The notes: generated by a model not told the origin, from the sequence alone. A stretch of DNA of 64,000 bases from Lytechinus pictus (GCF_037042905.1 NC_087250.1:9364001-9428000), one strand, 5' to 3'; positions 6,825-58,256 are shown, counted from the first letter of the stretch. Program-made: numbers and translations.

Positions 6825-7334
6825 TTAACATTCTGAATGGCTTCTTTACAGTGCAGTTAACAGGATGTTAACTATTGGCCTGCGATCTAAAACCTTTTGT
6901 GGTACTTGAATATTCTTGGATTTAATTTATGATTTGTAATTGATATGAATGTCAAGTTAGGGCGATTTTATTAAAGCACAAATCATGAAGTGTTAACATG
7001 GTTAATGTGCTTCTTTTTCGAAAATAAGATAATTGCTTTATTTTGTTTTTGTTTGTTTTTATAAATGCGCTATATAGGGGAAATATTATTTCATTTATCT
7101 ATTTCAATCTGTATCATGTCTCAGATATTAATACATCTACGGAAAGTATTATTTCAACCAATGTTCTATCCCAACGAAGTAGGTATCCAAGGGACGGATT
7201 TAAAAACATCGGGGGGGGGGGGGGGGCTTACAAATACTAATGCAATGCATTTGGTCTTGCTTTGACATTTGTGATATGTTTGGAATTGAATAATCTATTC
7301 TCCATGATGAGCAAGTAAGAACGAATGTGCATTT

Positions 7335-7525
7335 AACTTGTTTATTTCCAATTCTTCTAATGCCAATTCGACCAATTGCCAACTCGTGTACTATCATTTG
7401 GTCTACCATCAGTTCGTCCACTATCCACATGTTCTAATTGCCAGTTCGTCCACTATCCACAAGGTCTAATTGCCAATTCGTCCACTCACCATTTCGTCTA
7501 GTAACCAGTTGGTCCATTAGCCATT
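7335..7525. repeat. Short tandem repeats (gccaattcgtccactatccaca-type)
   Basis: Several adjacent imperfect units. Confidence 0.7.
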
Positions 7526-8041
7526 TTATTTTCTTCAAAATATCATATTATTTAACATGGAACTCATGGTTGGTAAACCTCATGTCAAAATAACTTAAGC
7601 GTTGATGTATAATATTATTTTTACGGCAACAAGAAGTGTCACTTCTTGTCCCCATGTCCCTATTTCCCTTCTTCTTCTCGCCTTCATCCCTTTTAGCATC
7701 TATTCCACATTATTCCTCTTGTTCTCTTCTTTTATCCTCTTCTAAACTCTCTTCTAATTATTAGTATTATTATTATTCTCCTTCTTCTTCTCATCATCAT
7801 TCTTCTTCTTCTTCTTCTCCTCCTCCTCCTTTTTCTTCTTCTCCTTCTTCTACTTCGTATTGTTTTCCCTTTCTATTGCACATTGTTCTTCGTCTTCTCT
7901 TCAGAATCTCCCCTTCTGACTTATTATTATCCCGGCTTCTTCACTGTTCTCCATCATCATCATCACCATCACCACTACCACCACCACCACTACCATCATC
8001 ATTTTCATCATATTCGTAGTCTTTGTCTTAAACATGTTTAA

Positions 8042-9650
8042 ATAGACCAGTTCGTAGTTACTTCATGGACAATTTTGGTCAAATGACCTTTCATTTCTTT
8101 CATTATTGTTAAGACAGTGTCAGCATAATTATACCACGTTGTCACAATAACCACAAAGGAGGCGTATTCTAAAGTTAGCTTCCTTTTAATACTTGGAAGT
8201 ATCTCAGTGGTGGTGCTAGCTTGTAGCGTATATTCAACAACTGTGTGTGAATCCTGTAGCAAATAACAAAAATTAAACAACAAAGATTTAGACTCTTGAT
8301 CAAGTACTAATGGTTCCTTTCACATAGTATTACAATGGGTTATAAACTTGGAAATGATGTTAATACTTATTTCACTTGTCAACTGTAACGTGTTATTATT
8401 CATTACACTTTTATGTAAACACTTGTGCTTATCTATATCATTAAAACATAAACTTCTTATTCACTGAAATGTGTTTGAAATGCCATTTGTTTTGTTTCTG
8501 AAAATGACATAAACATCTATTATTATTTATGATCAAACTGCACTATTCAGTTTCTTTTGCAAAGTGTTTAGCAAAGTATTGTAATATTTGTCAAAAAACG
8601 ACTTAATCGAGACTAGATTAAAGCCGAATCACCAAAGAAACATCAGAAAATATTCCTCCGCTTTGAAAACGTGCGCGAAAAATGACCGTACAATTGGGTT
8701 TCAAAGTAATTAGCGTAAGAAAAATAGGTCTCTTATCTCACCTCAAATTTATGAGTTCTTGAACCAAATTAAACAAAATACGTGTTTCCAAATAATTGAC
8801 AAACTATCATAAAACATGTTTGTTTCTCTCATTTGCCTTGAATTACATTAACAACAAATTTGCATGAATAAAACTTTCACTTTCACTCGGTACGCTGTCA
8901 TGTTGAACACGTTTGTATTAACGTTAGTTATGTAATTTTCCATTATCCATCTTTAAAGACAGACCTAAAATTGACCCTAATCACCTTAAATACATTACAG
9001 AAATACATGTAGGAATTAAGCATAAACTACACTGTAATATTAATCGAACAGAATTTAACGTACCTTCAGTTTTGTATTAAATAACGAAGAAAACTCGGGA
9101 TCGACCAAGGTCGATGTACCTTCGAACGATCTTGTTTTAGCTGTGACCTTGCTTTGACCTTGAAGGGTAATAAGTCTAAACTCAAGTACATGCAAATAAC
9201 ACCAAATATTTCAAAAGGCAACAATATCTGAATATCAAACTATGTCATTCTATGACACATTATGATAGGCAGATTTCAAAGCAAGATATTACGTAAGCTT
9301 GCCTAACATAGCATGATGAAGAAATTGAATAGACCAGGTGACTAGAATAGCACACCAATGAACACTTTATCATGTTTATGGAGGTATTTGTTGCATTCCT
9401 ACTTTGAATGCATATCATAGCACGTTGCACAATTTACTTGGCAAACTGTGAAATACCAGTCGTTCGTGGACGCATTGTTGTTTTTGTGGATGTAAATGAA
9501 AACCACAATTCAAAAGAAAATATGAATAATCAACTGGTGCTTATCTCAGTAGATTTTAAACCACCATGTCACTTTAGTACAAATGACCTTCCTCTAATTA
9601 TGCGTAGAATCTTTTGATCATGCGCAGAAAGGAACTACCAACTGGCTTAT
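8042..9650. mobile_element. Non-autonomous DNA transposon, family R (AATAGACCAGTT / AACTGGCTTATT ends)
   Basis: Imperfect ~20-bp TIRs. Internal segments match 47790-48200 (inverted) and 35248-35271. Confidence 0.7.
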
Positions 9651-9701
9651 TGTTCTTGTGTTTTATTTTTGTTATGTTGATTCCTCATCCTCAGAACTAT
9701 C

Positions 9702-9978
9702 ATGGCAGAAGACGGCAGGATGCCACCTCTGTCCAACAGGGACCTCATCAAACTCACCAACGGGCTGGACCAAGACGAGTACTTCAGACTCGGTAGGGCC
9801 TTAGGAGTCGCAGAAGGCATTCTCAGCCATCTGTGGGACCCAACGCAGATGTCGTGTGCTTTGCAGATGGTGCTCCTGTGGAGGGATGATCTTGGGCCTG
9901 AAGATGACCAAAGGGCCATTTTGATCGAGAAACTTTTAGAAGCGGGACTGGAGGACCAACTAGATAAACTATTGAATG
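9702..9978 (+). CDS. NLR coding exon 1: N-terminal Death-fold domain
   Basis: Acceptor tcctcag at 9694, ATG in context atcATGG, donor GTATGT at 9979. Translation ...YFRLGRALGV...ALQMVLLWRD...LIEKLLEAGLEDQLDKL fits the Death-domain pattern. Confidence 0.85.
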
Positions 9979-12900
9979 GTATGTCTTGAAAAATAATTAC
10001 AACTGATTTGGCGATAATTACACACCGTGATTATGAAATGTAGGTTGTACAACTTCATTTCATTTGTAGTGCCAGCAAAATTTCATCTTTTTTTCCAGAG
10101 TGATCTCTAGTTTCCTGAGATTAGTGATCAAACTAAAACATTGTGGTTGGGGTCACCAGGGGTGTTTAATAAAGCTATTCGTAAGTGAAGAGCGACTTTA
10201 AGAACGACTGGTGATCCTTTTTTGTGGTAAATGGTATTCGCTGTTAAATTTTCATTGGTGATTAGTTAGCGCATAAGAAAGGTTCACCAGTCATTCGCTC
10301 TTAACATGCTTAACTTACGAACAACTCAATGAAACGCCGACCAGATTCGGGACCAATCATAAATTACATTGAAGTAATATTCACTCTAGATCTGAGATCT
10401 GAAAAACTGATATTCTCAGTGTAATTCTGGTTCGATCCCTCATTCAATCTGAAACAATTTTTAAATTAAAAGAGTTAACGCTATCTTTTCAAGTAGTCGC
10501 CTAAGGTAATGTGTGATGGCTCAGTATATAAATCAATTCTTATTAAAAAGGAGTAGTTAAAAAAGACCAACGTCGGCGATCTAACGCAAGAAATATGAAT
10601 TTTTCTTCATTATTATGCTTGGTTTTTTAATCAATTTATTGAGGACTTGGGCAATAGTAAAGTTACTAATTTTTTTTATATCATTTCAAGCATCGCCAGG
10701 GCCAACCCCGCCATCTCCAGGACATTCTTACTTCGGAACGACAGACACTACAAGAACAAACGTCCCCGTTTTACCAATGAAACTGAATAGAAAGGACACT
10801 GAGAAGGATAAACTATCCTCTCCTGCAATGGGTCAAAGCTATAGCGAAACTGTTGCTGCTAAGCCCGAACCAGAAAGCCATACTGCTAGGCCAGGACACA
10901 CTGGAGACCGTGGATTTGAACAAGAGTTTGAAGGTCGGTCTAATGATGAAGACGACACTGACGACTCAGACCCGGAAAACTATATCAATGTGTCCAATAG
11001 AGTACTCCACAGAGGATCGAGAACTGTCTCTTTAGCTTTTGGAGGTAAACCAGTTGAGGCATTCCAAGGCTCTCAAGAGAACATGATTCGTGAAGAAGCG
11101 GAGGGTGATGTGGGCGACTCTGAATCGTTCTTACAACCCTCTAACCTTGTCACAGATAGGACAACAGGCGATAACGATGATCTATGCTGCGATCAGGCTG
11201 ATATCCTTCCAGCCACCCTTGAACACACCGATAGCCCAATTAATCCGGATAGCCGTGACAGTGTATCTAGCAGGTTCGACACCAATGAGGCGGTTTATGC
11301 AAAACCATCAGTGTCAATCAAGAACTCCATGGACACCAGAAAACCTGTGGAAATACAAGACTGTACTAAGGTATCTTCAAATCTTGGGTCGGGTAGCAAA
11401 GGACAGGCACGTACTCGTCAGCACGACAATGAGGGTGTATATTGTTTAGAACAAAGCGTTGATTCTCAAGAATCATCTACGGCAGAATGCACGTTACCAG
11501 AATCAAGTACTAGTAAGGTAAGGCCTCCTAAGCCTGCTCGTAAGAAAAAACACCTCTTTCTGCCAGGCAATTCTGAAGTAAATCAGCACGACGAAGAGAC
11601 ACGAAAGGGTGATTTAATATGTAAAGACACACCCCAAACCAGACCAACAGAGCAAAGTATGGCGCCGAATAACACACACATGACTATTGGCAATCAACAA
11701 GAAGAGTCAAAACTGGCAAAGGATCCGAAGCTGATCAGCGATGCGTACGATTCTCCCAGAAAACCAGAAAGGGGAGGGGTTGGAGGAACATCACTGATAC
11801 ACAAAACGGAAAAGACTCCTAATCACACAAATGCAGTCGATACTGATAACTTTACCATAACGCAGCCCATAAACGAAAGATGTTTGATACGAATGGAGGG
11901 CACAGCTGATCAGGAACAGGGAGGTGCCACGATTATTACACCTTCTGAACCAGCTAAACCTTTCCCAGCTAGAGCACCTACCCTTACCAATGGTTCCCAA
12001 GGATCACAGTCGGGTGAAGCAAAGAATATGTTGAGCCCCCATCATGTGAACGGAAATAATAAGAACACAACACCATCGGAGATTTATGATGAACAAGAGC
12101 ACATGTATGCAACAATCCCGGAAGACCAGAATGCAAGGAGACCTGTTGTCCCGTTTAAACCAAAATTACCAGTTGGTTCAGATTTAGCCCCAACTACCCA
12201 GGATCCTTCAAACAGTTTACCGAGCTTAAATGCGCCATCGGGAACAGAAGATAGACCACTGCAGTTAACAAAAACCACACCGGAAGAAGACACTGAACCT
12301 CTTGAACCCGACATCGATAAGACTACGGAATCTTCTCCCCAATTTTCACCAAAACCTCTGTCAGTTGGACATGGGTCATCCAAACCCAGAAGCAAACCAA
12401 CGCAGGTAGCTGGTAATTTGTCTACTCGTTGTAAGACGAAACCACCGCAACAAGCAACGGGCAATGGTTCTCTTCTGAGGAAGACCGCTCCATCGACTCC
12501 TGGATCCACTATGAACAAACTAGGTATGCCCGTGTCTCAATATGTTTGCGTTTTGTACTTGCGTATATGTACCGTGGTGCATTTTATCCCATTCCAGGTT
12601 TGCAAGGGGTAGACTTGCTAGACAGTGCAGAACATACAATAGTTATAGCAGTGCTGCTTATATGCAATCTTGGAATTGGCTTTAAAGCACTACTGTTACA
12701 CAATATATTGTGTATTCAAAACCTCTGAAGCGAGACCAATTAAATTTTTATAGAAGGACATGCAATGAGTTTCCTAGTTACACACAATTAATTGAGAATA
12801 TATATATATATATTTTTTTTTTTTGGGGGGGGGGGCGTGCTGTATGTCCTCAGGTAAGAGAAGAACATGTCAGAGATCAGTCTCACAAATTTCCCCTGTC

Positions 12901-15900
12901 AGGATTAATACCCACCAGCATCCAGCCATATGCGTCTTTTTCTGCTTCCACACATGTTCCGATATGCCTATTTATTACCACAGAACTTCCATCAATTATG
13001 ACTTTTTGGAGGGGTTGTCGAGCTTATGTTTGCTAGTTAAACCATTCAACTACACATTGCACCATGTTTTGATCAACGAAATTCCTCATTACAAACGAAA
13101 GGAAATTGGTCATACCAACGGACAAATGATAACACTCGCAGTAACAGCGTTAATAATGTGTTTAGTAGTAAACCACTTATAACATTAAAGTGGAGGATGA
13201 AAGGCAATTTAAAATCTAGTTATTTTTGTAATTACTATTTCCTCAAAGCATGGAAAGTACAGTAACAAACAAAAACATGTTAATTCTTCCATTGTATTCT
13301 ATTATTTTGGTCGCTACAATGGGGTGCAATACATGTCATAATTATCATATCACAATCAGACTTGGAGGGAAAAAAGCGTGCTCTTTTCTCAGAAAAACAA
13401 AAATATCATTAGATCGCATAATTTCCAATCTATGAATTAAGATTCAAAATTAAGTTTTCAGCTTTTTTTTATTTGCTGGTTTTTGTTACCTTTAATATAA
13501 GGATCCTCGTTCCAGAGTAATAAAGCACTGAGTGAAGACATCCTTCGAGCTTTGGCGGGAGACATCACGGATGGCAAGAAACTCCAGGCACTTGGGCTTG
13601 AACTTGGCTTTAAAGAAGCCGACATGAATGGATTTGAAGCGATGAACCATCGCACAGGCAGCGACCCCGTGGAAGGCACACTTGACATGCTGCAGACATG
13701 GCAATCAAGAGTTTCGCCAGAGGACCAATTGGTAATGTTGAAACACGCCCTCAGGAGGACTGGTCTTACTATGGCTGAAACACATCTGAGATCCACTAAG
13801 AGGCGCAGAGGTGAGATCGAGCATTCATGTATTAACCCGTTGACTCCTGTGTTTCATAAAGCTATTTATAAATTACAAGCGAATTCATGGACGACTGGTG
13901 ACCCTTTCTTATGATCTACATGTTTATCAACTCCATTAGAAATCGTGTGTATCACCTACCACAATAGAGGATCACCAGACGCTCGTAAAGTTGCTCGTTA
14001 CTTACGGACAGCTTTATGAAACACCCACCTGAATTCTTCTTTTCCCATAGGAATACATTTTAGGATCTATCCGTTTCCAGTTCCCCGCTGTGTAGTTTTA
14101 TTTATACACGACAGGAAAAGTAATTCTTAACCATGCTAAAGATTCCATTGACATGCATTTCCCACACAGCCTTAATTCTTGAAATCTCATCCATTATGGC
14201 CGCCATTAAAATTTAAACTGCCTTGGGAATTTAATTTAATTTTAGACATTATATTTCATATTTTTTACATTTGCCCCTCAAACTCTTCCACCAACAATCG
14301 CTCATTCTCTCATCATAAATTGGTTTGGATTTCCGGGGGAAAAGACGCCTTTTTCAATAATTTATCCCGCAACTCTTTGCCTCCTCTCTTATTCAGAAAT
14401 AATATGATTTCCATGATAAACTTTTTCATCTTATCAAAATGATTTTATTTCCTTAATAGATATAACAGGCGTTAGCGTGACAAAGAACTTCACCGTGTCG
14501 GATTGCCGCGAGAAGCTACAATTCCATTACAGGATTGAGACTTGCAAGGGTCTAAAGAAACACGAAAATTTTGCCTCCTATCTCCCAATCGTAGATGTTC
14601 ATCGGGTCGTAAAGCGAGGAAAGAATGTTTATGTGGAGAAGACACCTCTGAAAGATGGGTCTGTCAAAGAAATTTTAAGGACAAGAAAAGATGGTTCATT
14701 GCCGAGCAGGATTGTAATCTTTGGCCCATCAGGAATAGGGAAAAGCACGCTTGTGGCTCAGATGGCGCATGATTGGGCTGAACGAGTTCCTGGATCCCCG
14801 CTGAACGATGTCCTTCTGCTATTCGTCCTCAAGATGAAGTTCATGACTAATCATGGAACCTTGGGGCAGGCGATCGTTAATCAACTCCTAAGCGACGTCA
14901 GAGGATTGACCGCTCAGGGAATCGACCAACTCATCGAGGACAACCAAACGGAATGCATGGTGGTCCTTGATGGTCTGGACGAGTTTAGAGGCGAGGTTTC
15001 TTCTGTCAGGTGTGGTCATGTTCTGCGCGTTCTCCAGAACATCCAACTGCGGACGTGTCGCGTCGTTGTGACTAGCCATACAAGACTCGAAGACTACTTC
15101 AATAAGGAAGACTTGCCAAAGGACTTTCTCAAGTTTGAACTCCGTGGACTTTCCCATGTGCAATCAACATCATTCATACGGTCTTTCTTCGAGGAAAACT
15201 CATTGCACAGAGCCAAAGAGATGATTGTATTTCTAGAGATGAATGACATCATCCGAGAACTGTTGGCCACACCCCTATTTTGTATCATTGCGTGTCACCT
15301 CTGGGAAAGTAATCTTCTTCAGCTTGTCACAACGGAGTCAGAATTCTATGATAGTGTAAATCGTTTCTTACTCAAGCAAAGGGAAGAACAGGCGTCAATG
15401 GTTGCCGGAGACACTGATCTGGAAATAATTGTCCAAGGCATAGGGGAAGTTGCGCTCAATGGTCTCCTTGATGACCCAAACAGACGATTCTTCGGACAAA
15501 ATGACTTTAAGAAGATGCCCTCAGCCCTAGAGAAGGCAACTTCGATTGGTATCCTCAATAAGACATCCCCCAAGAAGCGCGATGAGACTGGAATTGAGTT
15601 CTATCATCGCAACGCGCAGGTGCACTGCGCGGCTAGGTATCTCTCCAAAGACGTGACCTCGAAATCAATCAAGGGAAAGCAGAGTCGTCTGGAGAAGGCC
15701 TTGAAGCAGATGGCAAAGAAGAACCTGGCGGAATTCGGCAGCTTACTACGGTTTACAGCAGGAATAGGAAGCCCTTCAACCAGACTGCAGGTGATTGAAG
15801 CCATCAATTCTGCGGATAATATACCAATAGGTGACAAGACTAGAATGGTACTCGACTGCCTTTCAGAGATTCCTCAACTGGACAAGCCAACAATGTACGT

Positions 15901-18188
15901 GGTCGAACGATGTTTCGAAGGAGGCAACGTTATAATAAACCTTCCAACCCTACACACTACTTTGGGTCTCTACAAACTCCATCCATCTGTAAAAGAAAAG
16001 GTGGGTCCCAATGGTTTATATATAATAACATCTTATTATCTTAATAGTGGGGAATTTTGGCCTTTCTGGGTAAAGCCATCTGAATCCCTTCTTTAGTTGG
16101 ACTTTAACCATTTTAAAATGTCTTCCAGTTGATGGTTTACGTAGTTAACATTTCTTTAGAAGTCCATATCATCCGGGGAATTTTAAAGCTCCATACGGTT
16201 AAATCCTTATCTTGAAAAACATAAATAAGCTATATTAGTACAGGCATTTTTCAACTGTGCATTTTGACTAAAAGTATAACTTAGAATAAAATGATATTAT
16301 CTTTTCTGTCGTTTAGCAAGATTGTGAAATATTTGTTTAGTAATGTTGACCACTTTATCCGTTAAGGGTGCTATAAAGTTTTGATTAAATTTTATTGACA
16401 TCGCTATCGCTGTCTTTATTTCATAACCGCATTTCCTACTATCATGATTAACATTATTACAAACATAATGAAACTATATCAAGAATGAACTCGTTAAACT
16501 TGTTCCAGATAATTTTTTGTAAATTTATTATCGAGGTGTTTGATTTCTATTTCAAAACTCCTCTTTATAGATACGTGGCTTGAAGATCCAGGGTTCTTTC
16601 ATGGCTGACCTTGTAGCCAAGAGGTTATCAACGGCTCTCCAAGGGTGTTGTGACCTACTCAAGCTCGAGTTTGCTGATTTGCAGAATGCAGCATATCCTC
16701 TGATCCTGCTCCTGCTAAACAAGCTCTCACTTCATCTCTTCCCCGATGGCGCCACGTCAATTCTTCCAGACCTCCATCAGACTATATTCAATGGAGTAAG
16801 CCTTCCATTTTTTTCTTGTTCACAAAACCCCATTTCCTAACCATCCTATACTTTTGATAATGATAAAATATAACTAAATATCAATTTGTTTCACTATCAT
16901 CTTTATTTCAACACACACACATAAGTGCACACCTAGTTATTAAGAATGCGTGTAGCATTTCCATTTATTTGAATGCAGGATAAAAAAGCATTGTCGATTA
17001 AATGCCTTGCTCACGGACATAGGTGCCGCGACCGAGGATCGAACCCCGGTCTTTCTATATATAGCCAGGCGCCTTAAACCACTCGACTACGGCACCTCAC
17101 ACGTACCCCCCCCCCCCCCGCCGGTCGCGAAATTATTTTTCCCACCGCAGTTCTGGACCAACATATGAATATTCATGACTTGCGTCTTCGGAATAAGAGT
17201 ACGCATGCGCGTGGACTTCATCTTCATCTTTGCCTCGATCGATTTATATGTTGGTCCAGAACTGCGGTGGGAAAAATAATTTCGCCCCCCGGTCACACAC
17301 ACCCTTACATATTGCTGATATATATTGAAAGTGTTTTTCAATGAAATGCTATATGTCGATACAATTCATAACATGGAACATTTTTATCAGGCCGTGTGCA
17401 TGGAAAACAAGATCTGGAACTGAGTATAGGTAATCCGCACGTTAACCCAAACATAAAACCCAACCTCATTAACTGAATAAAGCCTTATCATTGTCTTTAC
17501 ACTATTTTGAACCAGAATCTCTATTACAATCCTAACTCTAACCCTATGCCCTCTGAGATATCAAGACCGGGGAAAATGTCGCAGGAGCAAATGTCGTGTC
17601 ACCGGTGAGATTGTTCCATGACATTTGCTCAGACACCACTATCATTAAGGATAAATTAAACAGACAGAAAATAATAGCTGTGACTGAGATTTCGTTTCTT
17701 TTTCATCAAGCTGCGGATTGTCGACCTCTCGGATTGCAGTCTATCACCAGCAGTGACCTGTGTCCTGTGGACTGCTCTAGCAAGATGCCCAAAGATTGAG
17801 CTGATGTCTGTAAAGAACTCCACGATCCTCGGCAAAGACCTCCCCAATCTCGGTTGCATCGCGGACCTCCAGGCGAATCTCCGCTCACCCATCCTCCATG
17901 ACGAGGTTGTCTGGCTGGCCAGTGTCCTAGGGGACCCCGAGAGCTCTACGAAGGTGAAACTGACCATCGGCGATGCAGGAGACGGATCCTTACGGCGTGT
18001 AGGACTTGGGAACCAAGAGCACATAGTGATGGCTGGTGACAGAATGGACCTCAATAACGCAACGGAAAATACCATTAAGGTTCTCAGTGTGCTACCCGAC
18101 ACGTACAGAAGAAAGGTATTGTGGACCCCCCTTATATGCGCTTCCAACATCATTATATATGAAACTACTTCTACCTCTACTACTGCTG

Positions 18189-18227
<39 letters not shown>

Positions 18228-21200
18228 TATACATGTAATACACCGCTACTGTTGCTCCTTCTTTTACTATACTGATACTAATACTACTACTTCTACTACT
18301 ACTACTTTACTACTACTAAGAGTGTTATTCCTACCATCTAGAGTAGTAGTAATAGTATTAATCACTTGTAATGTACCGTTCTAGCACATCATTCCGACTC
18401 GCAACAATCGGATCGGTACCTTCCTTCAACTTCGCCCGTATAATGATCATTCTCTCACCTCCTCCTTGGTCATCTTTTGGGAGATTCACTCCGTCCTACT
18501 TAAGCCGGCCAAGTATAGTCCTTCTATGGATTGCAGCCCATCGTAACGTATTACATCAACCTGCCAACGTTTACCAATTGCCTTCACTAAATATGGTAAA
18601 AAATGAAAACAAAGATACCAATTAATACTAATGTTCAATTCCAGGTTAGGAAACTCTGTATCAGTGGAACACGCTTCAGCTATGACCTGACCCATCCACT
18701 TCTTGACTTTGTCCACTCCTTAATAAGACTTGAAGTCATCGCCACGGAGGGAACGAACATCCCTGGGGAACTCCAACAGCTCCAAGTCTTCAAGGGGTCA
18801 TCCCATAGGTACGTCTACACATATATACCTGTAAAGTGACACTGCATCGAAACTCACCCTCGCGTTGGAAAGAATACGGTACCACACAACATGTACAAAG
18901 TGGCCCGTATTCCGAACTCGGTTTTTATTTAAACTCTGGTCTACAGTCGAGGTTTATGTATGGATAGCCAATGGGGACATAAATCTCTTAACAGTAGAAG
19001 TTCAACGTAGCTCATTTGACACTTTAATCATTCTGAACTGTCTGGGAAGGATAAACAAGATATATGACTTCACCACTAACGCAATGGGATGAGCACAGCA
19101 AGCATTAGAAACGTACAAACAAAATTGTAACATTTGTGGCTTCCCTTAATGTTAGCATATAGAAGACCATTGTCTTATATAAGTTTATCTGAGTTCAGAA
19201 TACGGGCCAGTGTGTCCACAGTGCTTTCCCACAGTTAAAATGATCCGATTTAAAAGTGCGAATTAAGATAGTGCTTTCACACTGACGATACAATGACAAC
19301 GCAAGCGTAGAACAGTGTACTTAACATTGCATTCACAACGTCAGATAAAATGCTCAAATTTAACAGAGTAGATATGATTTGATATTGTACTCAGCACTGT
19401 AAACATATTTTAGGATATTGTTTAAGATAAAGCACGGTTAGGATGGATGAGGATGTGTCCGCGTGAGGTTACATGGACCAGCATCCTTATCTTATAATGT
19501 TATAAAGAATATAAGACGTCCAACTTGTACTGAGTATCATTTTGATCATCGGCTGTGTTTATGTAAAAAAAAACATTTTGATTTAACTAAACTTCCCATA
19601 TATGTATATGAAAAAATTATGAAATAAACACTTTGAGATATATATACTTACAAATATAATTATGGTTCGGTGTGGATTGCAAATGGAATTTGAACATGGC
19701 AGTTGGATTGCCAATGGAAGTTATTGGTGGCGCCAGTGGTTCTGAGACTCTTTCATCATTCTCCTGAAGAGGGCACGAACACACTTGTCCAGACGTCGAG
19801 GTTGGGTGGTCCTTTTTTTATGGCCAACACTTGCCCAAGAATGATACATGGTGTACCGTGAAACCTACAACTATATATGTTCCGGTATCCCCATCTTAAT
19901 CTTAAGAATATAAGACGTCCAACTTGTACTGAGTATCCTTCTGATCATCGGTCGTGTTTTCAATACACCGCCACAAATCTGTAAAAAGGGCATCAAACTG
20001 CGCATATTTGTAAATCAAACATTAACTAAATAACACTGCTATATATGTACCGTATATAGTTCGGTGTAGATTGCAAATGGAATTCGAACGTGGCAGTTGG
20101 ATTGTCAATGGAAGTCATTGCATCGTGGCGCCATGCATGATTCTGCCGTTGATCCTGCAACTCTGTAATCATTATGGCCCGTATTCTGAAGTCAGGTTTA
20201 AGTTAAACTCAGGTTTAAAGTTGTGGTTTAAGTATGGACAGCCAAAAGTATCAATTTTTTTTATTAAGTTGTACGTTCTTATGTTTGCTGTGCTCTTTCT
20301 TGATTCATCGATGGTGAAGACATTTTCTATATATACTTCCTAGCCAATTATGAATGATTTGAGAGCCAAATGAGCTGAAATATTATATCCCTACTGTTAG
20401 TGATTTATGTGACAATTGGCTGTCCATACTTAAACCACAACTTTAAACCCGACTTCAGAATACGGGCCTATGTGTTTTCCTTTTTAGAGACATGAACCAA
20501 CTGCCAAGCTTAGATCCAGACGGTGTCCTGACGGGATGCGTATCGTCCCCTCTTCGGGAGGAAGAATTCGAACGGCTCAGTAGTGTGTTCAACTACAGCA
20601 GAACGACGACCCTTAAACAGGTCCATCTCCTGATCGAGCACGACAGTAGCTCTGAGGAGTTTAGGGAGATGCTTGTCATCGACGAAGATAACATAGACCT
20701 CTCAAACGTGTCATCGGCATCCATTGAAATCCTGAAGATGATTCCGCCGTCGTTTAAGCAAAAGGTAATTGAATGATTCACAAGTTGCCGGGTTGCTAAA
20801 TCTACTATCTACCCAACACCCCTACCCACTGTGTCAAGCTACATTCGGGAGTCCTCACACAATGAAGCAGAAACGACACAATACGACAAAGAACAGCCGG
20901 GAGGCCCTTGTCGAAAATTGGTGAACCAGAACAAGAGTTTTGTCCTTAGTTTCGGAGCTGACGAAAAATTGCAAATATGTCGTTTGTTGTACGAAACTGC
21001 TGTCTTTATTTGCCAATTTTCGACAAAGGCTTCTTGGTTGCTCTTTGCCATGGAGGGCGTTTCAGTTTTTTTTCTATGCTTCTGATTCCATTCTGTGCTG
21101 CGATGCGAAGACTCCCTATTTAGGAAATGATCACCTCACACTGCTACACATAATATTGTTATCCCGGAATGCTTTCATCAGCCAAGGGGTAGTATAGGTG

Positions 21201-24200
21201 TCCTAACACATGACCCTTGAATGTATCAAACTAAAGTAGTGTGGCTAGATTCAGGTAAAGCAAGTCAATCTTTGATAAACGCCCTCTTTGTTTTGTGGAC
21301 GTACACACACTCACCCACATACACGACAAACACACTCACGTACACATACATGTATGTATATATATATAGGTGAAAAAATTGTAAAAGTATGTTATTCTTT
21401 GCACTATGTAGATGCATTTCGCTAGAATCAAGAACTGCACACTGACAGACGAGCTTTCGCACCAGTTGTCCCAGGCACTCCAGTCGATGATAGAACTCGA
21501 GATGTGTCTGTCTGAGAACAGGTCAGTGTATGCCGATATTTAGACCCGTATTCTTGACTCGGGTTTAGATTAAACCCTGGTTTAAAGTTGTGGAACAACT
21601 ATGGAGAGCCAATGGGGGCACAGATATTTATAAGTACAGTCCCATGTATAAACTTACACAACACTCAAATCATTCATAACTGCTGAGAATGATAACTGAA
21701 AGTTTTTTTTTATTATTATACAAGCGAATGAAAACAAAATAGTACACGTTAGAAACACACTACATAGACAGAATTGTTGAATTTGTGGCTCACCATTTAG
21801 CACAGAGTTAGACCGTAGTCTAAGTTAAACCCGACTTCAGAAAACGGGTCTTACAGTTTAATATAAAGTTACGCTGGACTCTGCGATCGATTGGAATGCA
21901 CGTGCGGCAAAGAATGCAGCATGTTATAGATTATTGTGTGAAGATGAGAGTCACACTTAAAATACCAAACCTTAGCACTGCGGACCCCTCTTAATACCTG
22001 GTTCTCGCTTTCACGATTCTCGCCTCGATTGAAAAGGTGATCTTAATCGTGTATAAATGATAGAAGTGATCGTAACAGGTCGTACCAGATCAGTCGTGGT
22101 AATCGTATTGATCGCAGGAAAAAAAATGAATGGTTCAAAAATTCTCACGATCAGTTACGGACGGCCGGTCGTGGCATTCGTGGCGGATCACATAGCAGTG
22201 GAAACGAGGCATTTGTGTCAAAGCTCACCGTGATCAAAGTGCCATAGGAGGCTCGATGAACTTATCCTGGGATCCACACTGTTAACTCAAATTAAGCGTG
22301 AAGATGATACGCTGGTGGCATTTCTACAGTGTTTCCACATAGGCCCGTATTCTGAGGTCGGATTTAACGTAGACCACGGTCTGAATCTGTGCTAAAATTA
22401 TGGCAAGCCAAAAATATCAAAAAAAATTTTCTTTTATTTATTTTGCTCACTCCTAATTCTTGAATGGTGAAGACAATTAACTTATTTATCATTCCCGGTC
22501 GGCTTAAGATTGAGTCAAGAGTCAAATGGGCTGATAAATTGGACATCTGCTGTTTTGGATTTCTGTCACAATAGGATATCCATAGTTAAACCATAACTTT
22601 AGAATAATGGCCAAGTGTTAATGTGAAAGTGTGAATACCCTAGTCTATCATTGACCTAGAACGAAAATTAAAATTAAGGTGGTTTCACATTATGATTTGC
22701 ATTGTCACCACACTGTGATGAAGACACTGTATTCCGTCCAGCAGGGGTATATTTACAATGATCCTAAAGGCCACCGCACACCTTACGATTGTCCGATTTT
22801 GGAACAAATCGCATTTTGCTCATTTTCTGAAATTGTGAATGGAACATATCATTTTATTTGAGGTTAAAATTAATTGAAAGAATACTAATACAACCATTTT
22901 GAAAGATTGCAAGCCTTTATTTTGGAGTAAAGGCCAAATTAGTTTCAAATCGTAGCCAATCGTACGACTGCTATGACGTCATTACGACTAGATATTAAAT
23001 TTGCCTTTATTCTAAGAAGGATGATAGCATAGTCACAGATTTGTACATAGGTATTCGTACGATGATTTCGAACATTACGCAGTAAGATATTCCAAGTCTC
23101 AATATTAGCATCAAATTCTACTACGTTTTATTCCAAAATTAGTTGCAGACCAATAGTAAGGTGTGCGGTCGCCTTAAGATTATTCTTCTTGCATTCGACT
23201 TAAAGAAACCATAGAAAAAACCCAGAGAACGACCATACAAGCAAACCAAATCATTTTTAATTTATCATGACACATGCGTCAGTGAAGCCAAGCCCCCAAA
23301 AATTGCTGAATGGTGAAAAGATCATGTGAAATCGCAGCTTCCACTAATGGTTAAAGAGATAGGGTTGCAATAGGGTTTTATGTTAGAATTGGGGTTAGGT
23401 TAGGATAGGTAACACTATTAAATCTAGGTCATTCCATTTATGTGTGGAATTAGCAGCAGAGTAAATGTCACGGAACCCCACAAATCCCGAAGTACAATGC
23501 ATACTATGTTTCTTGAATATATGTGGGTGTTGGATATGGAAATTAAATGAAAAACAAATATCATTCTATTGTTATGATGGAAGCCTTTGAATGGTTCTTG
23601 GTGATTGTGTAATAGATTATTATACATGTAGAAGAAAAAAAATCGGTATAAAAATATGTATTGAGATACAGTGCATAACATGAAATGTGAATAAAATTAT
23701 TTAAAAAGAGCGATCCTGATATCCTGCTAATAATTGATGTATAACGAAACAAATATCAATTATTTCTATCATAGTATCCTTGGTCGAAAAGCCTTCCACT
23801 TGAAATCTGTCACTGTACTTGACGTTGGCCGTTTCTCGTCGCAATGTTTCGACTGGGAGTGGCTTGCCAGTGCAAAGCTGCTCGAAGAACTGCACCTCAC
23901 CTTCGAAGCATCCCCGCCATCCACGCCCACATCCCCTTCCACACCGGCTGCAGCGGACATGGCGACCTCCCCACTGTCTGCAAAGAACCGGATCTACGAA
24001 GAAATCCACGAAAGAAAGGACACTGCTGACGTTGAGGGCGCTTCAGATGAGGACTTCTTTCTGACAACCGGAAGACTGGTAATGAAGAAGATGTCTTCCT
24101 GTAGCTTATCAGTGATGCTGCATCTACCACAACACATGAAAGATGAGGTATGTCTACAAGGCAAAGCCCACTAAACTTATGATAGGGTACTTTCTGCGCA

Positions 24201-25325
24201 TGTCCAGTTCCCCAAAATTAGGACTGACCATGCACTGACCGATTTCGTGTCCCAATCTACCGAGTACCCATTTACTACACATGGGCGGAGAGTGGAAAAT
24301 GTAGATAAACGCCTCGCCAAAGGACGCGAGTGCTGCGGTGGAATTAATTTTTGCCTCGGACATTGTGCTTTAAAGTCCAGAGACTATATATTTCTATATA
24401 ACAAAATATATATGACCTATCAGTCACCCCCAAACCAACAATAAGATTAGCCAAAATAGTTTTCAGAAAATAAAAATGATAGAATTATCTAATATTTGAA
24501 AGAATAGTTATCCTCTTACTGTCAACAATTAAACTTCTAATGTTAAGTTTTAAAAAAACCGAGATAAAAGATATTTGACTATTCTTGTTCCTGACTGCTT
24601 GGAATTTCCAAGGAGATTTGTACATTGTGCACATATCACGCTTTAGTGAACTCCAAGCCTTGTTGTCTCTTTGTAAAGCTCTCACCGAGTTTCTTTTCCA
24701 TTCGATGAAGTAGTTGAAGGGATTATTTTTTGATCAATTTTGAAAATACATAATTTTAAAGAAATATATTATATCAGTTTAAATAAAAATCTTAAAATTC
24801 ATTTTGGGCGACCATTGTGTATTTTGGGGTGTCAGGTCACACACTTTTGTACTCTTTTAAAACTGGATCGCATGAATGAAATGATATGAAAAGTAGTTTG
24901 GTCTGTGGAATAGTACCATCTAAAATAGTATTGTTGTATTTCCGAGTTTACTTATCTCTATCAGGGTTATGTCTCCCCATTTCTCGACTTTTTTTCTCCC
25001 TCTCTCACCACCCCTCCCCCTCTCTCTCTCTTTATCTCTCTCTCTCTAACTATCCTTCTCTCCCTCACTTTCACTCTTATATGCCTCCTCCTTCTTCATG
25101 TTCTTCCTGTAATGTATACATTACCTTCTATTTCATCAGTTGCGTTTCGTGCGGATTCGTTCAACGAAGCTCACCGTGGACGTCCTCAATCGTCTCTCCG
25201 ATGTCCGGAACTCCTTCAAACATCTCAAGCCGCTGTCGCTTCAAAACCTGTATCGTAGGCCAATCAAGCACGGATGCATCATGCAACCAGGTTCATCCGA
25301 CCCCGTACTTGGCCAGTGGGACTGA
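9702..25325 (+). CDS. NLR-family gene (Death - disordered linker - Death - NACHT - atypical LRR-like region), 11 coding exons, 1899 aa
   Basis: Exons 9702-9978, 10691-12523, 13502-13810, 14460-16000, 16571-16795, 17711-18115, 18645-18808, 20488-20764, 21412-21521, 23775-24147, 25140-25325. All introns are GT-AG, phases match (1,1,1,0,0,0,2,0,2,0), total is 5700 nt ending in TGA. Walker A GPSGIGKS and Walker B VVLDGLDE are present. Confidence 0.88.
10159..10338. mobile_element. MITE family C (ggggtgtttcataaagct TIR)
   Basis: Palindromic element with copies at 13847 and 39436. Confidence 0.8.
10691..12523 (+). CDS. NLR coding exon 2: 611-codon low-complexity S/T/P/E/D-rich linker
   Basis: 1.8-kb uninterrupted ORF bounded by tttcaag acceptor and GTATGC donor, phase 1-1. 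Confidence 0.85.
13502..13810 (+). CDS. NLR coding exon 3: second Death-fold domain
   Basis: LSEDILRALAGDI...LQALGLELGF...TLDMLQTWQ...LKHALRRTGL. Donor GTGAGA at 13811, phase 1-1. Confidence 0.85.
13847..14026. mobile_element. MITE family C
   Basis: gtgtttcataaagct ... agctttatgaaacac TIRs. Confidence 0.75.
14460..16000 (+). CDS. NLR coding exon 4: NACHT NTPase with HD1/winged-helix/HD2 region
   Basis: Walker A GPSGIGKS (14723-14746), Walker B DGLDE (14969-14983), TPLFCIIAC and FYHRNAQVHCAARYL motifs. Donor at 16001. An alternative in-phase acceptor would start the exon at 14469. Confidence 0.95.
16571..16795 (+). CDS. NLR coding exon 5 (LRR-like)
   Basis: ctctttatag acceptor, GTAAGC donor, phase 0-0. 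IRGLKIQGS...LLKLEFADL. Confidence 0.75.
16925..17090 (-). mobile_element. tRNA-derived SINE
   Basis: Minus-strand tRNA-like head (A box gagtggtttaagg, B box ggttcgatcc) followed by a non-tRNA body. Confidence 0.65.
17711..18115 (+). CDS. NLR coding exon 6 (LRR-like)
   Basis: LRIVDLSDCSLS and IELMSVKNSTI resemble LxxLxLxxC/NxL. Phase 0-0. Confidence 0.8.
18164..18320. repeat. (TAC)n microsatellite
   Basis: Imperfect trinucleotide run. Confidence 0.9.
18645..18808 (+). CDS. NLR coding exon 7 (LRR-like)
   Basis: ttccag acceptor, GTACGT donor. VRKLCISGTRFS...LEVIATEGTNI, phase 0-2. Confidence 0.75.
18902..19208. mobile_element. MITE family D (GGCCCGTATTCTGAA TIR, 3-bp TSD, PIF/Harbinger-like)
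   Basis: TIRs with AGT duplicated on both sides. Confidence 0.85.
19483..20133. repeat. Local tandem duplication (~250 bp units at 19483-19735 and 19892-20133) separated by a Penelope-like fragment
   Basis: aagaatataagacgtccaacttgtactgagtatc and gattgcaaatggaatt..ggcagttggattg each occur twice. Confidence 0.8.
20176..20468. mobile_element. MITE family D
   Basis: TIRs with TAT TSD. Confidence 0.9.
20488..20764 (+). CDS. NLR coding exon 8
   Basis: ttttcctttttag acceptor, GTAATT donor, phase 2-0. ...IDLSNVSSASIEILKMIPPSFKQK. Confidence 0.78.
21412..21521 (+). CDS. NLR coding exon 9 (not in ORF track)
   Basis: MHFARIKNCTLTDELSHQLSQALQSMIELEMCLSEN. Donor GTCAGT, phase 0-2, needed to keep frame between exons 8 and 10. 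Confidence 0.72.
21543..21850. mobile_element. MITE family D (diverged)
   Basis: gacccgtattct ... agaaaacgggtc. Confidence 0.8.
22342..22612. mobile_element. MITE family D (diverged)
   Basis: ggcccgtattctgag start, body homologous to other copies. Confidence 0.75.
22769..23173. mobile_element. MITE family E (ggccaccgcacaccttacga TIR)
   Basis: TIRs, and a highly similar copy at 43872-44264. Confidence 0.88.
23775..24147 (+). CDS. NLR coding exon 10
   Basis: tttctatcatag acceptor, GTATGT donor, phase 2-0. LEELHLTF followed by a P/S/T-rich insert and RIYEEI. Confidence 0.8.
25140..25325 (+). CDS. NLR terminal coding exon 11
   Basis: tttcatcag acceptor, phase 0. LRFVRIRSTKLTVDVL...GQWD then TGA. 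AATAAA at 25788. Confidence 0.75.
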   Translation: MRFVRIRSTKLTVDVLNRLSDVRNSFKHLKPLSLQNLYRRPIKHGCIMQPGSSDPVLGQWD

Positions 25326-25742
25326 AAAGTACCCAATTTGAAATCGAGAGGAATCTACAAAAGAACACTTCTCTCTGAAGTCCGGAGCTCCTTCAAACAT
25401 CTCAACCTGCTGTCGCTTCCGAACCTGTATCGCAGGCTAATCAAGTACGGATGTATACTGAAACCAGGCTCATGTGACCCTTCACCTGGCCAGTGGGACG
25501 GACCACAGGAATCCCCTCTCAATCCAAAATGAAATTAAGAGGAATCCGCAAAAGACCACTTCTCTCTGAAGTCCGGCGGAACTCCTTCTAACATCTCAAA
25601 GTGCTATCGCTTGAGAACCTGCATCGCAGGCCAATCAAGTAGGGATACTGTTATCAGGCTCGTCCGACCCTATCCTTTGCCAATGGGACCTAAAAAGAAC
25701 CCCCACCCTCTCCATCCATATGAAATTAAGAGAAATCTACAC
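25194..25742 (+). repeat. Three tandem ~180-190 bp copies of the NLR coding 3' end
   Basis: Units start at 25194, 25371 and 25562 (ctctc.ga.gtccgg..ctccttc.aacatctcaa). Confidence 0.9.
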
Positions 25743-43600: not shown

Positions 43601-44927
43601 CAATGGTAAAGTAAATGAAATGCGCACAAATTGCCGATGCAGAATCGGCTTTCTATTTACACGTAGTAAAAAAGCCGATTCTGCATCAGCTCGCGGTTCT
43701 GAACCTATTACTTTGGTGGTGCAAATTGCCGGTTCTGAACCGCGAGCCGATGGAAGTTACTCGCGTTTGTAACACGCTATGAAAAAGCCGATGCTGCATC
43801 GGCTCGCGGTTCAGAACCGCGAGCCGATTCAAAAGCCGATTAAGTGTAAACACGGTATAAGTCACACTTAAGGCCATCGCACACCTTACGACTGTTCACG
43901 ATCCGATTTTGGAACAAATCGCATTTTGCTCATTTCTGAAAATGTGAATGAAACATATCATTTTATTTGAGGTTAAAATTAATTGAAAGAATACTAATAT
44001 AACCATTTTGAAAGATCGCAAGCCTTTATTTTGGAGTAAAGGCCAAATTAGTTTCAAATCGTAGCCAATCGTACGACTGCTATGACGTCATTACGACTAG
44101 ATATTAAATTCGCTTTTATTCTAAGAAGGATGATAGCATATTCACATATTTAAATATAGGTATTCGTATGATGATTGAGAGCCATATCTCAATATTAGCA
44201 TCAAATTCTACTACGTTTTATTCCAAAATCGGGTCGCAGACCAATCGTAAGGTGTGCGGTCGCCTTAAGGCGCATCCCAGTACTCGAACATAGCTTTCAA
44301 AAGAAATCATAATTTGAGTCTTACTTGGGCACAGACCATGTTAGCATCACGTGAGTCGAATCCAGTAGTACAAATTGTTCCCCATTCCCCATCTTTAAAT
44401 ATCTCCACCCGACCTTCAGTGGTGGCGAGTCCTCCATGCCTTGCAGCAAGTCGAATCGCTATTTGAAAAATAATATGAATATTAGTTGTATTTGTAGCTG
44501 CATGCAGTATTAAAGTATTAGTAGTAGGAGTAGTAGTAGTAGTAGTATATAGTAGTAGTAGCAGCAGCAGTAGTAGTAGTAGTAGTAGGAGCAGCAGTAC
44601 TAGCATTATCAGTAGTAATAGTAGTAGTAGTAGGCCTAGTTGTATAGTAGTAGTAGCAGCAGTTGTCGTAGAAGTAACAGTGGATACGTAGCAGCTAGTA
44701 GTAATTAAGTAGCAGGCTAGCAGCTAGAAGTAAAAGTAGTAGTAGTTGTAGTAGTAGTAGTAGTAGTAGTGGTAGCAGTAGTAGCAGTAGTAGCAGTAGT
44801 AGCAGCAGTAGTAGTAGTAGCAGTGGTAGTAGTGGCAGTAGTAGTGGCAGTAGTAGTAGTAGTAGTAGTAGTAGTAGAAGTAGTAGTGGTAGTATCAGTA
44901 TAGTAGTAGTAGCAGCAGTAGTAGTAA

Positions 44928-44963
<36 letters not shown>

Positions 44964-56952: not shown

Positions 56953-58256
56953 GTATAAAAATGAGCCCCGGAAAAGTTTTGAAAATGTGTGTGAGGGGGG
57001 GGGGGGGCTGAGGCCTATAGGGGTTGACCTAGCAGAAAATGACAGTAGCGCAAGGAGACAACCATTTTGAAGGATGCAGGCATGGCGTATATGGGACAAA
57101 AAAATATATTTAAAAAAAGCAAGTCAGCACAACTATTGCCCTTTTTAGACAAATTTCAAGTTTTGTGTCAGATTTTAAACGAAAATATTTCAAAAACTAA
57201 TATCACATTTCACCCTCCTCCTTTCCTTTTCTCTCCTTTTCTCATTTTTTTTTCTTGGTGCTGGTGAAAATATTGGGGGCCATTGTCCCAACCCCCCCCC
57301 CCTTCTGTACGCCAGTGCCAAGTAGTAATTTTGACATTTTTGTATACGTTTATCAAACACGAAATAAGAGGGGCTATCCACTACCAGTCCCGCAAGATAG
57401 CTTACTATTCAATTCAATTCAAATCTTTATTTCATTTCCATTCAAACATAATACAAAGTAATATAAATCGGATACCATTTTACAGGTGAACATTCTCATC
57501 TCGTAACAAAAATAAAAGTATAAAATTTGAATTTTGGAATGAGAATACTGATATTTTTTACTTGTTCCGTATAACCCAACTTTTGTAATGCTTTGATAGT
57601 TTTTTTTTTAAATGAAATGTGGAAACAGATAAATCAAGCAATAAGTTGAATGACCCCAATACAAGGACGCCTGACTGTGAGGGCGTAATATCCTTTATAC
57701 AGGTTCAACGTCTGGAAATGTCACAAAACTGGACGCGAATATGTTTTGTAACTTTCGAATTACTTTCTAGGTGAATTAATATACCCAAAAGTAAACTAGG
57801 GCATTGAACAATCATGTGGATAAATACTTTAATTCTAAATAAGTCCACTTTAAAGCGATCAATTAAATCGCTTGGCTAACAATCAGATTCAGTGAAAATC
57901 TTATATCCGGCCTGATCTGTTTTAACAAATGATTCATTAATAAAATTGTGAAATACGTTCAGATATCTATATCGATACTTACTTGTTCTTATTTAACTTG
58001 GGTTTTATAAGGGGAGGGGGGGGGGGCTAGGCGAAAAAAATGCCCGAATCTTAAACAGAATTCACTGTGTTGATTAGACCCCGAATAGAGTCTTTTAAGT
58101 AATTTTTCAAAGTTACTTTAAAAAAAAAGATATTTTTCAAAGTTAGGATTTTGTTTCCTTGCCCGGCGCTTCGTGTGTTGGATTGGCAAGGGTGCTGATG
58201 CTGCTGATTACTCATCATATCGTTATTATTTTGAGTATCAATATAGTTGTTATTAA

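Follow-up and report, generated by a model that had tools for sequence, protein, structure and literature searches.

Can a sea-urchin NLR carry two unlike death domains, held apart by a long tether, ahead of its NACHT module, and is such a protein the product of one gene or of two neighbours read as one? The question is raised by a 64,000-nucleotide stretch of the Lytechinus pictus genome (GCF_037042905.1 NC_087250.1:9364001-9428000, contig C6, plus strand; the whole stretch is referred to as the window), in which an initial annotation from the sequence alone had placed a giant NLR between positions 9,702 and 25,325, in the order Death, linker, Death, NACHT and a leucine-rich-repeat (LRR)-like tail. 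We find that the two-Death NACHT gene is real and is a single gene, LOC129262971, which is annotated, uncharacterised and, as far as we searched, an undescribed variant of the Death-NACHT family whose function is predicted from sequence. The explanation that we favour overall, and to which we give somewhat better than an even chance, is that the gene belongs to the Death-NACHT ('NLRD') branch of the NLR/STAND ATPases as an old echinoid member, essentially single-copy, with an added distal death domain (Death 1) and a docking tether.

One gene joins two death domains to a NACHT module

The plus strand between 9.7 and 25.3 kb holds a chain of open stop-to-stop frames. The exon model was built by taking the best donor and acceptor in each gap, with boundaries from RNA contigs wherever available, and a single splice combination stayed open from the ATG at 9702, the first downstream of an in-frame stop at 9678-9680, to a stop ending at 25325. 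It comprises 11 exons and 1899 codons, and all ten introns are GT..AG; for exon 7, the acceptor at 18645 is the sole one that keeps frame with the best donor, and it agrees with the orthologue models. The rebuilt protein matches RefSeq XP_063956929.1 ('uncharacterized protein LOC129262971') at 1899 of 1899 residues, so the frame-consistent 11-exon, 1899-residue model of the initial annotation was recovered intact. Introns 1, 2 and 3 have consensus sites and are all in phase 1, which makes exons 2 and 3 symmetric, shuffle-ready modules and means that skipping of exon 2 would keep the frame.

RNA data consisted of the contig sets of runs X1 and X2 and of about 6% of each of the raw RNA-seq runs X19 and X20. 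The X1 and X2 contigs skip introns with GT..AG ends and thus derive from spliced RNA. A 2549-nt X2 contig contains exon 4 (14458-15998) and exon 6 (17711-18093) with 227 nt between them, corresponding to the 225-nt exon 5. The same contig has an extra 398 nt upstream of exon 4; since exon 3 accounts for 309 nt, about 90 nt would have to originate further upstream, and these appear to be without genomic continuation. Exons 7-8-9-10(-11) are joined by a 1367-nt X1 contig and a 990-nt X2 contig (joints shown, 18805>20485 and 20762>21410). Exon 2 is spanned over 10690-11910 by contigs of both runs, and an 1800-nt X2 contig covers 10690-11840 and has 649 nt further upstream. The contig rows displayed cover the joins 4-5-6 and 7-11, not junctions 1-2, 2-3, 3-4 and 6-7; support for these four comes from the RefSeq models of Lytechinus variegatus and Strongylocentrotus purpuratus, where the junctions fall at identical positions.

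The ortholog search in echinoderms that the initial annotation proposed shows the same architecture in these two species. Searching with the linker exon retrieved L. variegatus LOC121417364 (1868 aa), which has 76% identity across the linker, is 88.6% identical to L. pictus residues 56-1899 and has its exon joins at the same residues; a second L. variegatus protein, LOC121417343, is full length (1924 aa, 88.9% over residues 1-1899) and has the same N-terminus. In S. purpuratus the orthologues are LOC100892949 (1735 aa, same N-terminus) and LOC115926429 (1570 aa, tail cut). A hidden Markov model (HMM) built from the death domains located both of them in all three species, at residues 1-92 and 705-801 in L. 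pictus, 1-92 and 730-826 in L. variegatus, and 1-93 and 532-628 in S. purpuratus. This shared layout indicates that the architecture predates the Lytechinus-Strongylocentrotus split.

The NACHT module is the most clearly recognised part of the protein. Pfam, run on ten exon frames of the L. pictus gene and on the whole L. variegatus orthologue (P0001), assigned exon 4 to PF05729 (E 3e-15, 56.9 bits against a cut-off of 26.7) and found the same family in the orthologue. NACHT modules are defined by Walker A, Walker B and the F-x-H...Q motif of the winged helix; here the Walker A lysine, the Walker B acidic pair and the F-x-H...Q motif are intact, with no variation at the corresponding columns of 10- and 12-row alignments. 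When the three orthologues were combined in a profile, the first match was NLRC4 (E 1e-7, chain residues 166-510), which is the closest solved relative. The proportion of residues invariant among the three urchins is 73% in the NACHT exon, 66% in the 579-aa tail (exons 5-11), 66% in the proximal death domain (Death 2) and 55% in Death 1.

At its 3' end the gene runs into an untranslated region (UTR) that extends to 25612 or beyond (contig piece 25138-25612). A tandem duplication at 25193..25741 (+) stretches from the 3' half of the last exon into this UTR (Tandem Repeats Finder: period 177-191, 2.1-2.5 copies, 77-79% matches). The copies in the UTR still resemble the conserved C-terminal tail when read as protein, for example ...LSLPNLYRRLIKYGCILKPGSCDPSPGQWD in the open reading frame at 25326-25532.

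Two unlike death domains and the linker between them

Death 2, encoded by exon 3, is recognised by Pfam as PF00531 with E 9.2e-5 and a narrow margin (22.9 bits against a cut-off of 22.6), and the L. variegatus orthologue falls below the cut-off at 16.7 bits. For Death 1, the exon 1 frame matches no Pfam family at E<=1, and two orthologous exon-1 fragments from other urchins (P0002 and P0003) match none at E<=10. When the Pfam Death model was run over the L. pictus genome, it listed 108 places, with neither Death 1 nor Death 2 among them at E<=0.01. Against PDB sequences, Death 1 gave only chance-level rows, both alone and as a 4-row profile.

Structure prediction gave a different picture of Death 1. 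Its AlphaFold2 model, made from a 4-row alignment, has six helices and a predicted local distance difference test (pLDDT) score of 83.2. VIA-align superposed 87 residues on the PIDD death domain 2of5_H with Z 11.8 and a root-mean-square deviation of 2.0; the top 24 rows are all death domains (Z 11.8 to 8.2), and the best DED, CARD and PYD reach 7.6, 7.1 and 6.6. In Foldseek, death domains account for 17 of the 19 rows listed to rank 20, with template-modelling (TM) scores up to 0.78, but every E is weak, at 0.12 or more. Helical bundles may reach Z 13 by chance in VIA-align, so the case for Death 1 is carried by the uniform family of the hits and by a sequence bridge to a Pfam-positive protein. 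Among 1.84 billion protein representatives Death 1 has three matches, namely the two exon-1 fragments (63% and 55% identical) and P0004, which is 31% identical (E 2.1e-4) and has two repeats that pass Pfam Death (E 3.2e-8). A cluster mate of P0004 is S. purpuratus LOC105441861 (P0032), a 'Death domain-containing protein' with three death domains. As modelled, Death 1 is thus a death fold of the DD subfamily that is invisible to Pfam.

The two domains differ in their relatives. Aligned with each other, they are 28% identical (19.6 bits), which together with the structural match at Z 11.8 upholds the two divergent Death folds of the initial annotation. In pairwise comparisons Death 2 is nearest to the domain of a C6 paralogue (42%, 67 bits) and to the proximal domain of a paralogue on contig C20 (41%); Death 1 is nearest to a three-death-domain gene on C2, namely to its first domain (30%, 36 bits), and to a domain of an NLR cluster on C26 (28%). 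Death 2 has 148 matches in its own genome, the best paralogues being 38-43% identical and many lying beside NACHT exons; such Death 2-like exons are found 0.3-9 kb upstream of paralogous NACHT exons. Death 1 is single copy, its next match having E 0.025. Judged by these relatives, Death 1 and Death 2 belong to different lineages, and the comparisons suggest that Death 2 and NACHT are the standard module of the family and that Death 1 and the linker are an addition of other origin.

LOC105441861 and its L. pictus counterpart (C2:62310117-62313371, minus strand) are the closest non-orthologous relatives of Death 1, and the domains of LOC105441861 pass Pfam Death. They differ in being short proteins of three death domains only, with no NACHT, which makes them candidate partners and not family members. 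LOC105441861 also carries a 2A/StopGo-like DVESNPGP at residues 33-40, before its first domain; NPGP does not occur in the L. pictus gene.

The evolutionary position of the gene was read from its NACHT exon. Of the 91 matches that this exon has in the L. pictus genome (an 811.7-Mb assembly), the best reach 35-37% identity and lie in clusters on C6. A 14-row NACHT tree groups the three orthologues as a 100/100 clade with a long stem (0.96), separate from the C20 paralogue and from six C6 paralogues (99/98). The S. purpuratus orthologue is 74% identical over the NACHT exon, and the nearest paralogues, at 35-37%, are young clusters. The upstream 10 kb were examined for three of 18 paralogues, the closest on C6 that were covered, and in this small sample each has one Death exon. 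A pair of Death exons at C6:21.366-21.368 Mb (minus strand) was rejected as a two-Death protein: they are near-identical first exons, each starting MATHG..., that lie 1.3 kb apart and some 11 kb upstream of a NACHT exon from which a retroelement separates them, and are duplicated or alternative first exons.

Between the two death domains lies the linker (residues 93-704), whose exon 2 frame has no Pfam family. Its mean hydropathy of 0.385 is under the charge-hydropathy (Uversky) boundary of 0.426, while the other four parts of the protein lie above theirs; serine, threonine and proline make up 30% of it and bulky hydrophobics 18%, and it has 8 tyrosines. Only 112 of its 612 residues (18%) are invariant in L. 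pictus, L. variegatus and S. purpuratus. Between the two Lytechinus species the linker is 80.5% identical and the other exons 90-98%, and over the whole protein gaps in S. purpuratus oppose 190 L. pictus residues. Two versions of the L. pictus protein differ by 6.5% of amino acids over residues 1-708 and by 1.2% over 745-1899. For residues 93-704 the ESM Atlas yielded nothing usable. Queried with the linker, word-index searches returned only the L. variegatus protein at the 'longer' setting and nothing at the 'near' setting; they missed the L. pictus proteins because the cluster representative is without the linker. From its composition, low conservation and many insertions and deletions, the ~610-aa linker is predicted to be disordered, in agreement with the disordered scaffold of the initial annotation, and it is kept in the same reading frame in three urchins.

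Conservation within the linker is concentrated in a few spots. Only three invariant runs of at least 4 residues occur, PVLPMK (118-123), DDSD (183-186) and ENYINVSN (188-195). In the second disordered segment, encoded by exon 10, I1787, Y1788, E1789 and I1791 of the IYEEI motif are invariant, the S. purpuratus sequence being IYEDI with E or D at +2. Y-x-N, Y-E-E-I and P-x-x-P-x-K were all found conserved in disordered segments, and the only deeply conserved spots of the two segments may be read as near-optimal Grb2-, Src- and SH3-type docking sites. PxxPxK is a class II SH3 ligand pattern, and PVLPMK, which fits it, is a putative ligand of this kind. With 8 tyrosines in the linker, a Y-x-N match is not rare in itself and its conservation alone is notable. 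As to the tyrosine motifs, one report describes pYEEI as a high-affinity ligand for Src's SH2 domain and pYVNV as a tight binder of the Grb2 SH2 domain (PMC2888578). We regard the matches of linker and tail to SH2 and SH3 ligands as suggestive.

Proposed mechanism and its alternatives

In the explanation that we favour, a signal sensed through the tail would cause the NACHT modules to oligomerise, as in NLRC4-type receptors. Oligomerisation would crowd the proximal Death 2, the native type of the subfamily, which could then seed a helical assembly that takes in death-domain proteins acting downstream. Death 1, distal and from another lineage, with an adaptor-like gene of three death domains as its nearest relative, would recruit a second kind of death-domain partner on its flexible tether. 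The tether itself may serve as a docking strip; of its only strongly conserved islands, PVLPMK resembles an SH3 ligand and ENYINV an acidic Tyr-x-Asn site. Death 1 and the linker probably joined a standard Death-NACHT gene before Lytechinus and Strongylocentrotus separated. Recruitment of two different adaptors and action at a distance, both proposed in the initial annotation, are what we infer from this arrangement. It is tempting to speculate further that the gene encodes an NLR-type switch wired to phosphotyrosine and adaptor signalling through Grb2-type (acidic-YINV), Src-type (IYEEI) and SH3-type (PVLPMK) sites, with the fast-evolving remainder of the tether acting as bait for pathogen proteases and a stand-alone isoform of Death 1 and linker as regulator; read from sequence motifs, this extended scheme is a long shot.

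Several observations weigh against the favoured explanation. In an older RefSeq release the locus was divided into a protein of Death 1 and linker (713 aa) and a remainder of 1155 aa, and X19 and X20 have no reads on three exon 4 bins (14304-16295) in the ~6% of each run covered, counts that are tiny and undecisive. The disorder of the linker is read from composition and divergence, and short motifs can arise by chance in some 600 disordered residues, where only conservation supports them. Orthology is one to one with no expansion, in contrast to the typical fast-duplicating urchin NLRs, which leaves an immune-receptor role uncertain. Finally, the tail has no Pfam LRR over the cut-off (the best, LRR_8 in exon 10, has E 0.041 and 14.1 bits against 27). 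Its comparison by hhalign with the LRR part of P0011, a distant NACHT protein, gave a probability of 4%, and its hydrophobic autocorrelation peaks at z 2.3 at lag 34, close to a NACHT control (2.2), with two LRR controls reaching 3.5-4.0 at lag 28.

Other searches with the tail point the same way or offer leads. LRR families are absent from the whole L. variegatus protein even at E<=10, and the tail fragment P0017 has no hit among PDB sequences. In the ESM Atlas the tail meets LRR_6-type clusters at 0.84-0.86, a lead that lies under the tool's trusted level of 0.9. An hRxhxhxxsxh motif opens exons 5, 6, 7, 9 and 11, and exon 6 has a weak tblastn match to the post-NACHT exon of a C6 paralogue (25%, E 0.003). 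Of the domain order first proposed, Death-linker-Death-NACHT stands, and the LRR-like tail, with no Pfam LRR over the cut-off and no 28-residue periodicity, is not demonstrated.

Could the locus make two products? A soluble adaptor or decoy of about 713 aa, Death 1 plus linker ending at a small exon at 13249, might exist besides or instead of the 1899-aa protein, with Death 2-NACHT-tail as the receptor, a reading that we consider doubtful. The older model XP_054757289.1 ('proteoglycan 4-like', 713 aa, 93.5% identical to residues 1-708) ends in AWKVQ, and the window encodes AWKVQ followed by a stop right behind a good acceptor at 13249, in intron 2; its companion XP_054756906.1 (1155 aa, 98.8% identical) starts at Met745, inside Death 2. 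X19 and X20 place a few reads on the exon 2 bins (10320-12975, mean depth 0.05-0.95), their first mates mostly on the minus strand, the orientation that standard stranded libraries give for plus-strand RNA; the three exon 4 bins have no reads. Against this, the parts are joined in the current RefSeq model and in both orthologous species, the older models stem from an annotation that was more fragmented, with a duplicate 313-aa tail fragment as a third model in the same protein cluster, and the reads are very few. Bin 12976-13639 has a depth of 2.56 in X1, and 2.54 is expected from 138 nt of exon 3 at a contig depth of 12.2, which would leave no genomic run-on before exon 3 and no room for the 13249 exon. 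No AATAAA or ATTAAA occurs in 13241-13520, within 270 nt after this exon, and no RNA for it was seen among the contigs and reads aligned to the window. Exons 1 and 2 as a separate gene, the outcome that would have undone the initial annotation, was therefore what the older annotation held, and is contradicted as the main form by the current annotation, the two other species and the contig arithmetic. A minor short isoform of Death 1 and linker is possible; the reads on the linker and not on the NACHT exon, next to the older 713-aa model, are a hint of such a transcript. The more drastic reading of the split annotation, an erroneous merger of two neighbouring genes, also draws on junctions 1-2, 2-3 and 3-4 being outside the contig rows displayed. 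We find it barely credible, as the merged architecture is present in the models of three species with junctions at the same residues, introns 1-3 are uniformly in phase 1 with consensus sites, a Death 2-NACHT gene of its own would have no start codon context save the internal Met within the Death 2 fold, and the X2 contig seems to pass exon 3 by about 90 nt that do not continue in the genome.

If the single 1899-aa protein is accepted, its parts may still work differently from what we propose. Death 1 might fold back on Death 2 or NACHT and keep the protein off, so that Death 2 would be freed to signal once the tether is phosphorylated or, by analogy with the NLRP1/CARD8 'tripwire', cut by a protease from a pathogen. 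Both death domains are on one chain, the tether is long enough to reach, and the linker evolves fast (18% invariant; 6.5% against 1.2% between the two L. pictus versions) in a manner resembling the NLRP1 linker (PMC7857732). Fast evolution fits relaxed constraint equally well, however, and activation of the NLRP1 type needs a FIIND/CARD module, for which there is no Pfam hit here; such self-inhibition seems to us improbable. The single copy, the clear orthologues, the long separate stem beside young paralogous clusters and the tail without recognisable LRRs would also suit a housekeeping or cell-death scaffold, a STAND ATPase that builds death-domain complexes in development or stress by a PIDD- or Apaf-type logic instead of detecting pathogens. 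The best structural match of Death 1, a PIDD death domain, fits that idea, though rows within Z 1 of it are tied. The nearest relatives of the gene all belong to the urchin NLR expansion, and the NACHT profile matches NLRC4 first, which leaves the scaffold reading with a small probability.

The Death-NACHT gene with an added distal death domain and docking tether, which we prefer, has consequences beyond this locus. Urchins have among the largest NLR repertoires known, and the signalling of these receptors is almost uncharted; a conserved single-copy member allows orthologues to be compared and knock-down free of redundancy. Two unlike death domains point to two possible output channels, and a Death 1 unseen by Pfam shows that domain surveys of echinoderm NLRs count too few death folds. 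The short conserved docking motifs offer concrete, cheap experiments. If the phosphotyrosine reading were true, NACHT oligomerisation and two death-domain platforms would be coupled to tyrosine-kinase pathways; working motifs would link NLR oligomerisation to tyrosine-kinase adaptors, which is undescribed for animal NLR heads in the literature searched, and motifs that do not work would leave a well-documented, ordinary architectural variant.

Features of the window and comparison with known systems

Coordinates of the exons, motifs and putative alternative exon of LOC129262971, counted from the first letter of the window
Feature	Position	Strand	Basis
Exon 1, start codon and Death 1 (residues 1-92)	9702..9978	+	AlphaFold2 fold, VIA-align
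Exon 2, 611-codon linker (residues 93-704), phase 1-1	10691..12523	+	composition, RNA contigs
Island PVLPMK (residues 118-123), fits PxxPxK	10765..10782	+	invariant in three urchins
Acidic island DDTDDSDPENYINVSN (residues 180-195), contains Y-x-N	10951..10998	+	DDSD, ENYINVSN invariant
QEHMYA (residues 561-566), partly conserved	12094..12111	+	Q561, E562, Y565, A566 invariant
Putative exon within intron 2 (alternative terminal or poison type), translating as ..L/AWKVQ stop	13249..13266	+	AG acceptor, pyrimidine tract
Exon 3, Death 2 (residues 705-806), phase 1-1	13502..13810	+	Pfam Death
Exon 4, NACHT module and winged-helix part (residues 807-1320)	14460..16000	+	Pfam NACHT, RNA contigs
Walker A GPSGIGKST	14723-14749	+	within exon 4
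Walker B VVLDGLDE	14960-14983	+	within exon 4
FYH..Q motif (FYHRNAQVH)	15599-15625	+	within exon 4
Exon 5, tail, 225 nt	16571..16795	+	fits 227-nt gap in X2 contig
Exon 6, tail, begins LRIVDLSDCSL	17711..18115	+	RNA contig piece 17711-18093
Exon 7, tail	18645..18808	+	RNA contigs from 18675; joint 18805>20485
Exon 8, tail	20488..20764	+	RNA contigs, GT..AG joints both sides
Exon 9, tail	21412..21521	+	RNA contigs
Exon 10, tail, proline/serine-rich insert, conserved IYEEI 23992-24006	23775..24147	+	X2 RNA contig
Exon 11, last coding exon, stop 25323-25325	25140..25325	+	RNA contig piece 25138-25612

Within and around the gene, the bins 7000-8327, 8992-10319, 13640-14303, 16960-17623, 19616-20943 and 22272-23599 have very high summed contig depth with many non-GT..AG joints and loose ends; they are dispersed repeats in the gene flank and the introns, and one lies immediately upstream of the start codon. 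Just past the exon 6 donor, at 18164-18318 (+), an ACT microsatellite of 53 copies gives poly-Thr and poly-Leu in open frames and could mislead exon calling. The NACHT gene has an SRCR gene as neighbour, seen at 39629-45147 on the minus strand as exon-sized frames with Pfam SRCR (E 7e-16, 1.5e-18 and 1.7e-9) beside long Thr/Leu codon-repeat tracts. A 96-nt tRNA-Thr(tgt) called by ARAGORN at 41647-41742 (-) is probably false or repeat-derived, and Rfam recognised no family in the whole window at gathering score. At 56299-57123 (-), a 274-aa frame with a C-terminal reverse transcriptase part (RVT_1, E 5e-8) is a retroelement remnant.

Literature searches on the gene and locus names and on two or tandem death domains with NLR, in a scope without the NLR tables of Hibino et al. 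2006, found no description of the gene, and 'two death domains' together with NACHT led to ASC/NLRP3 papers only. The idea of an undescribed NLR subtype thus survives for the layout within the literature searched; the protein itself is already in RefSeq, tandem death-fold heads are in print for echinoderms, and the C20 paralogue also has two Death exons.

Death-NACHT(-LRR) is the sea-urchin layout as outlined in two reports (PMC2858798, PMC11508797). The L. pictus gene resembles the urchin and amphioxus 'NLRD' receptors in having a death domain directly ahead of the NACHT exon, and its nearest paralogues in the same genome show exactly that pair. It differs from them in adding an unrelated Death and a disordered exon of ~610 aa, and in being a single-copy conserved lineage with no detectable LRRs. 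Urchin NLRs are reported to cluster with NAIP and IPAF (PMC3879445), and NLRC4 is also the best solved sequence relative of the NACHT-winged-helix part here; NLRC4 has one CARD and canonical LRRs, and neither a second death-fold domain nor a long disordered spacer. NLRP1 has a rapidly evolving disordered N-terminal linker that is cut by viral proteases, a 'tripwire' (PMC7857732). The likeness to NLRP1 and CARD8 lies in fast-evolving disorder between an N-terminal death-fold domain and NACHT; the linker described here is about six times longer, and no FIIND-CARD output module is seen by Pfam.

Closest in outline are receptors with two death-fold modules N-terminal to NACHT. NOD2 has two CARDs. 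NLRs with 'juxtaposed death and CARD' domains are mentioned for echinoderms and amphioxus in PMC8662601, and Supplementary Table 9 of the study on the sea cucumber Chiridota heheva (PMC8913654) lists 9 'DED, DED, NACHT', 1 'Death, NACHT, Death' and 0 'Death, Death, NACHT' rows. In these tandem heads the DED or CARD domains are adjacent, whereas the L. pictus gene has a pair from the DD subfamily, of different lineages and 612 residues apart. The C20 paralogue (7.096-7.108 Mb, minus strand) comes nearest within the genome: its predicted gene model runs, on one strand, from ~360 aa of disordered sequence through two Death exons to NACHT and a tail, of which Pfam recognises NACHT only, and the disordered part includes two repeats with IYIDV/IYIDF. 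Like the L. pictus gene it has two Death exons and disorder before NACHT, but its Death domains are duplicates of the one 'native' type (39% identical mutually, 36% and 41% to Death 2), and its disorder precedes both and has no similarity to this linker. Heads with several death-fold domains are thus not unique to LOC129262971; the pairing of two unlike death domains over a 612-residue spacer is, so far.

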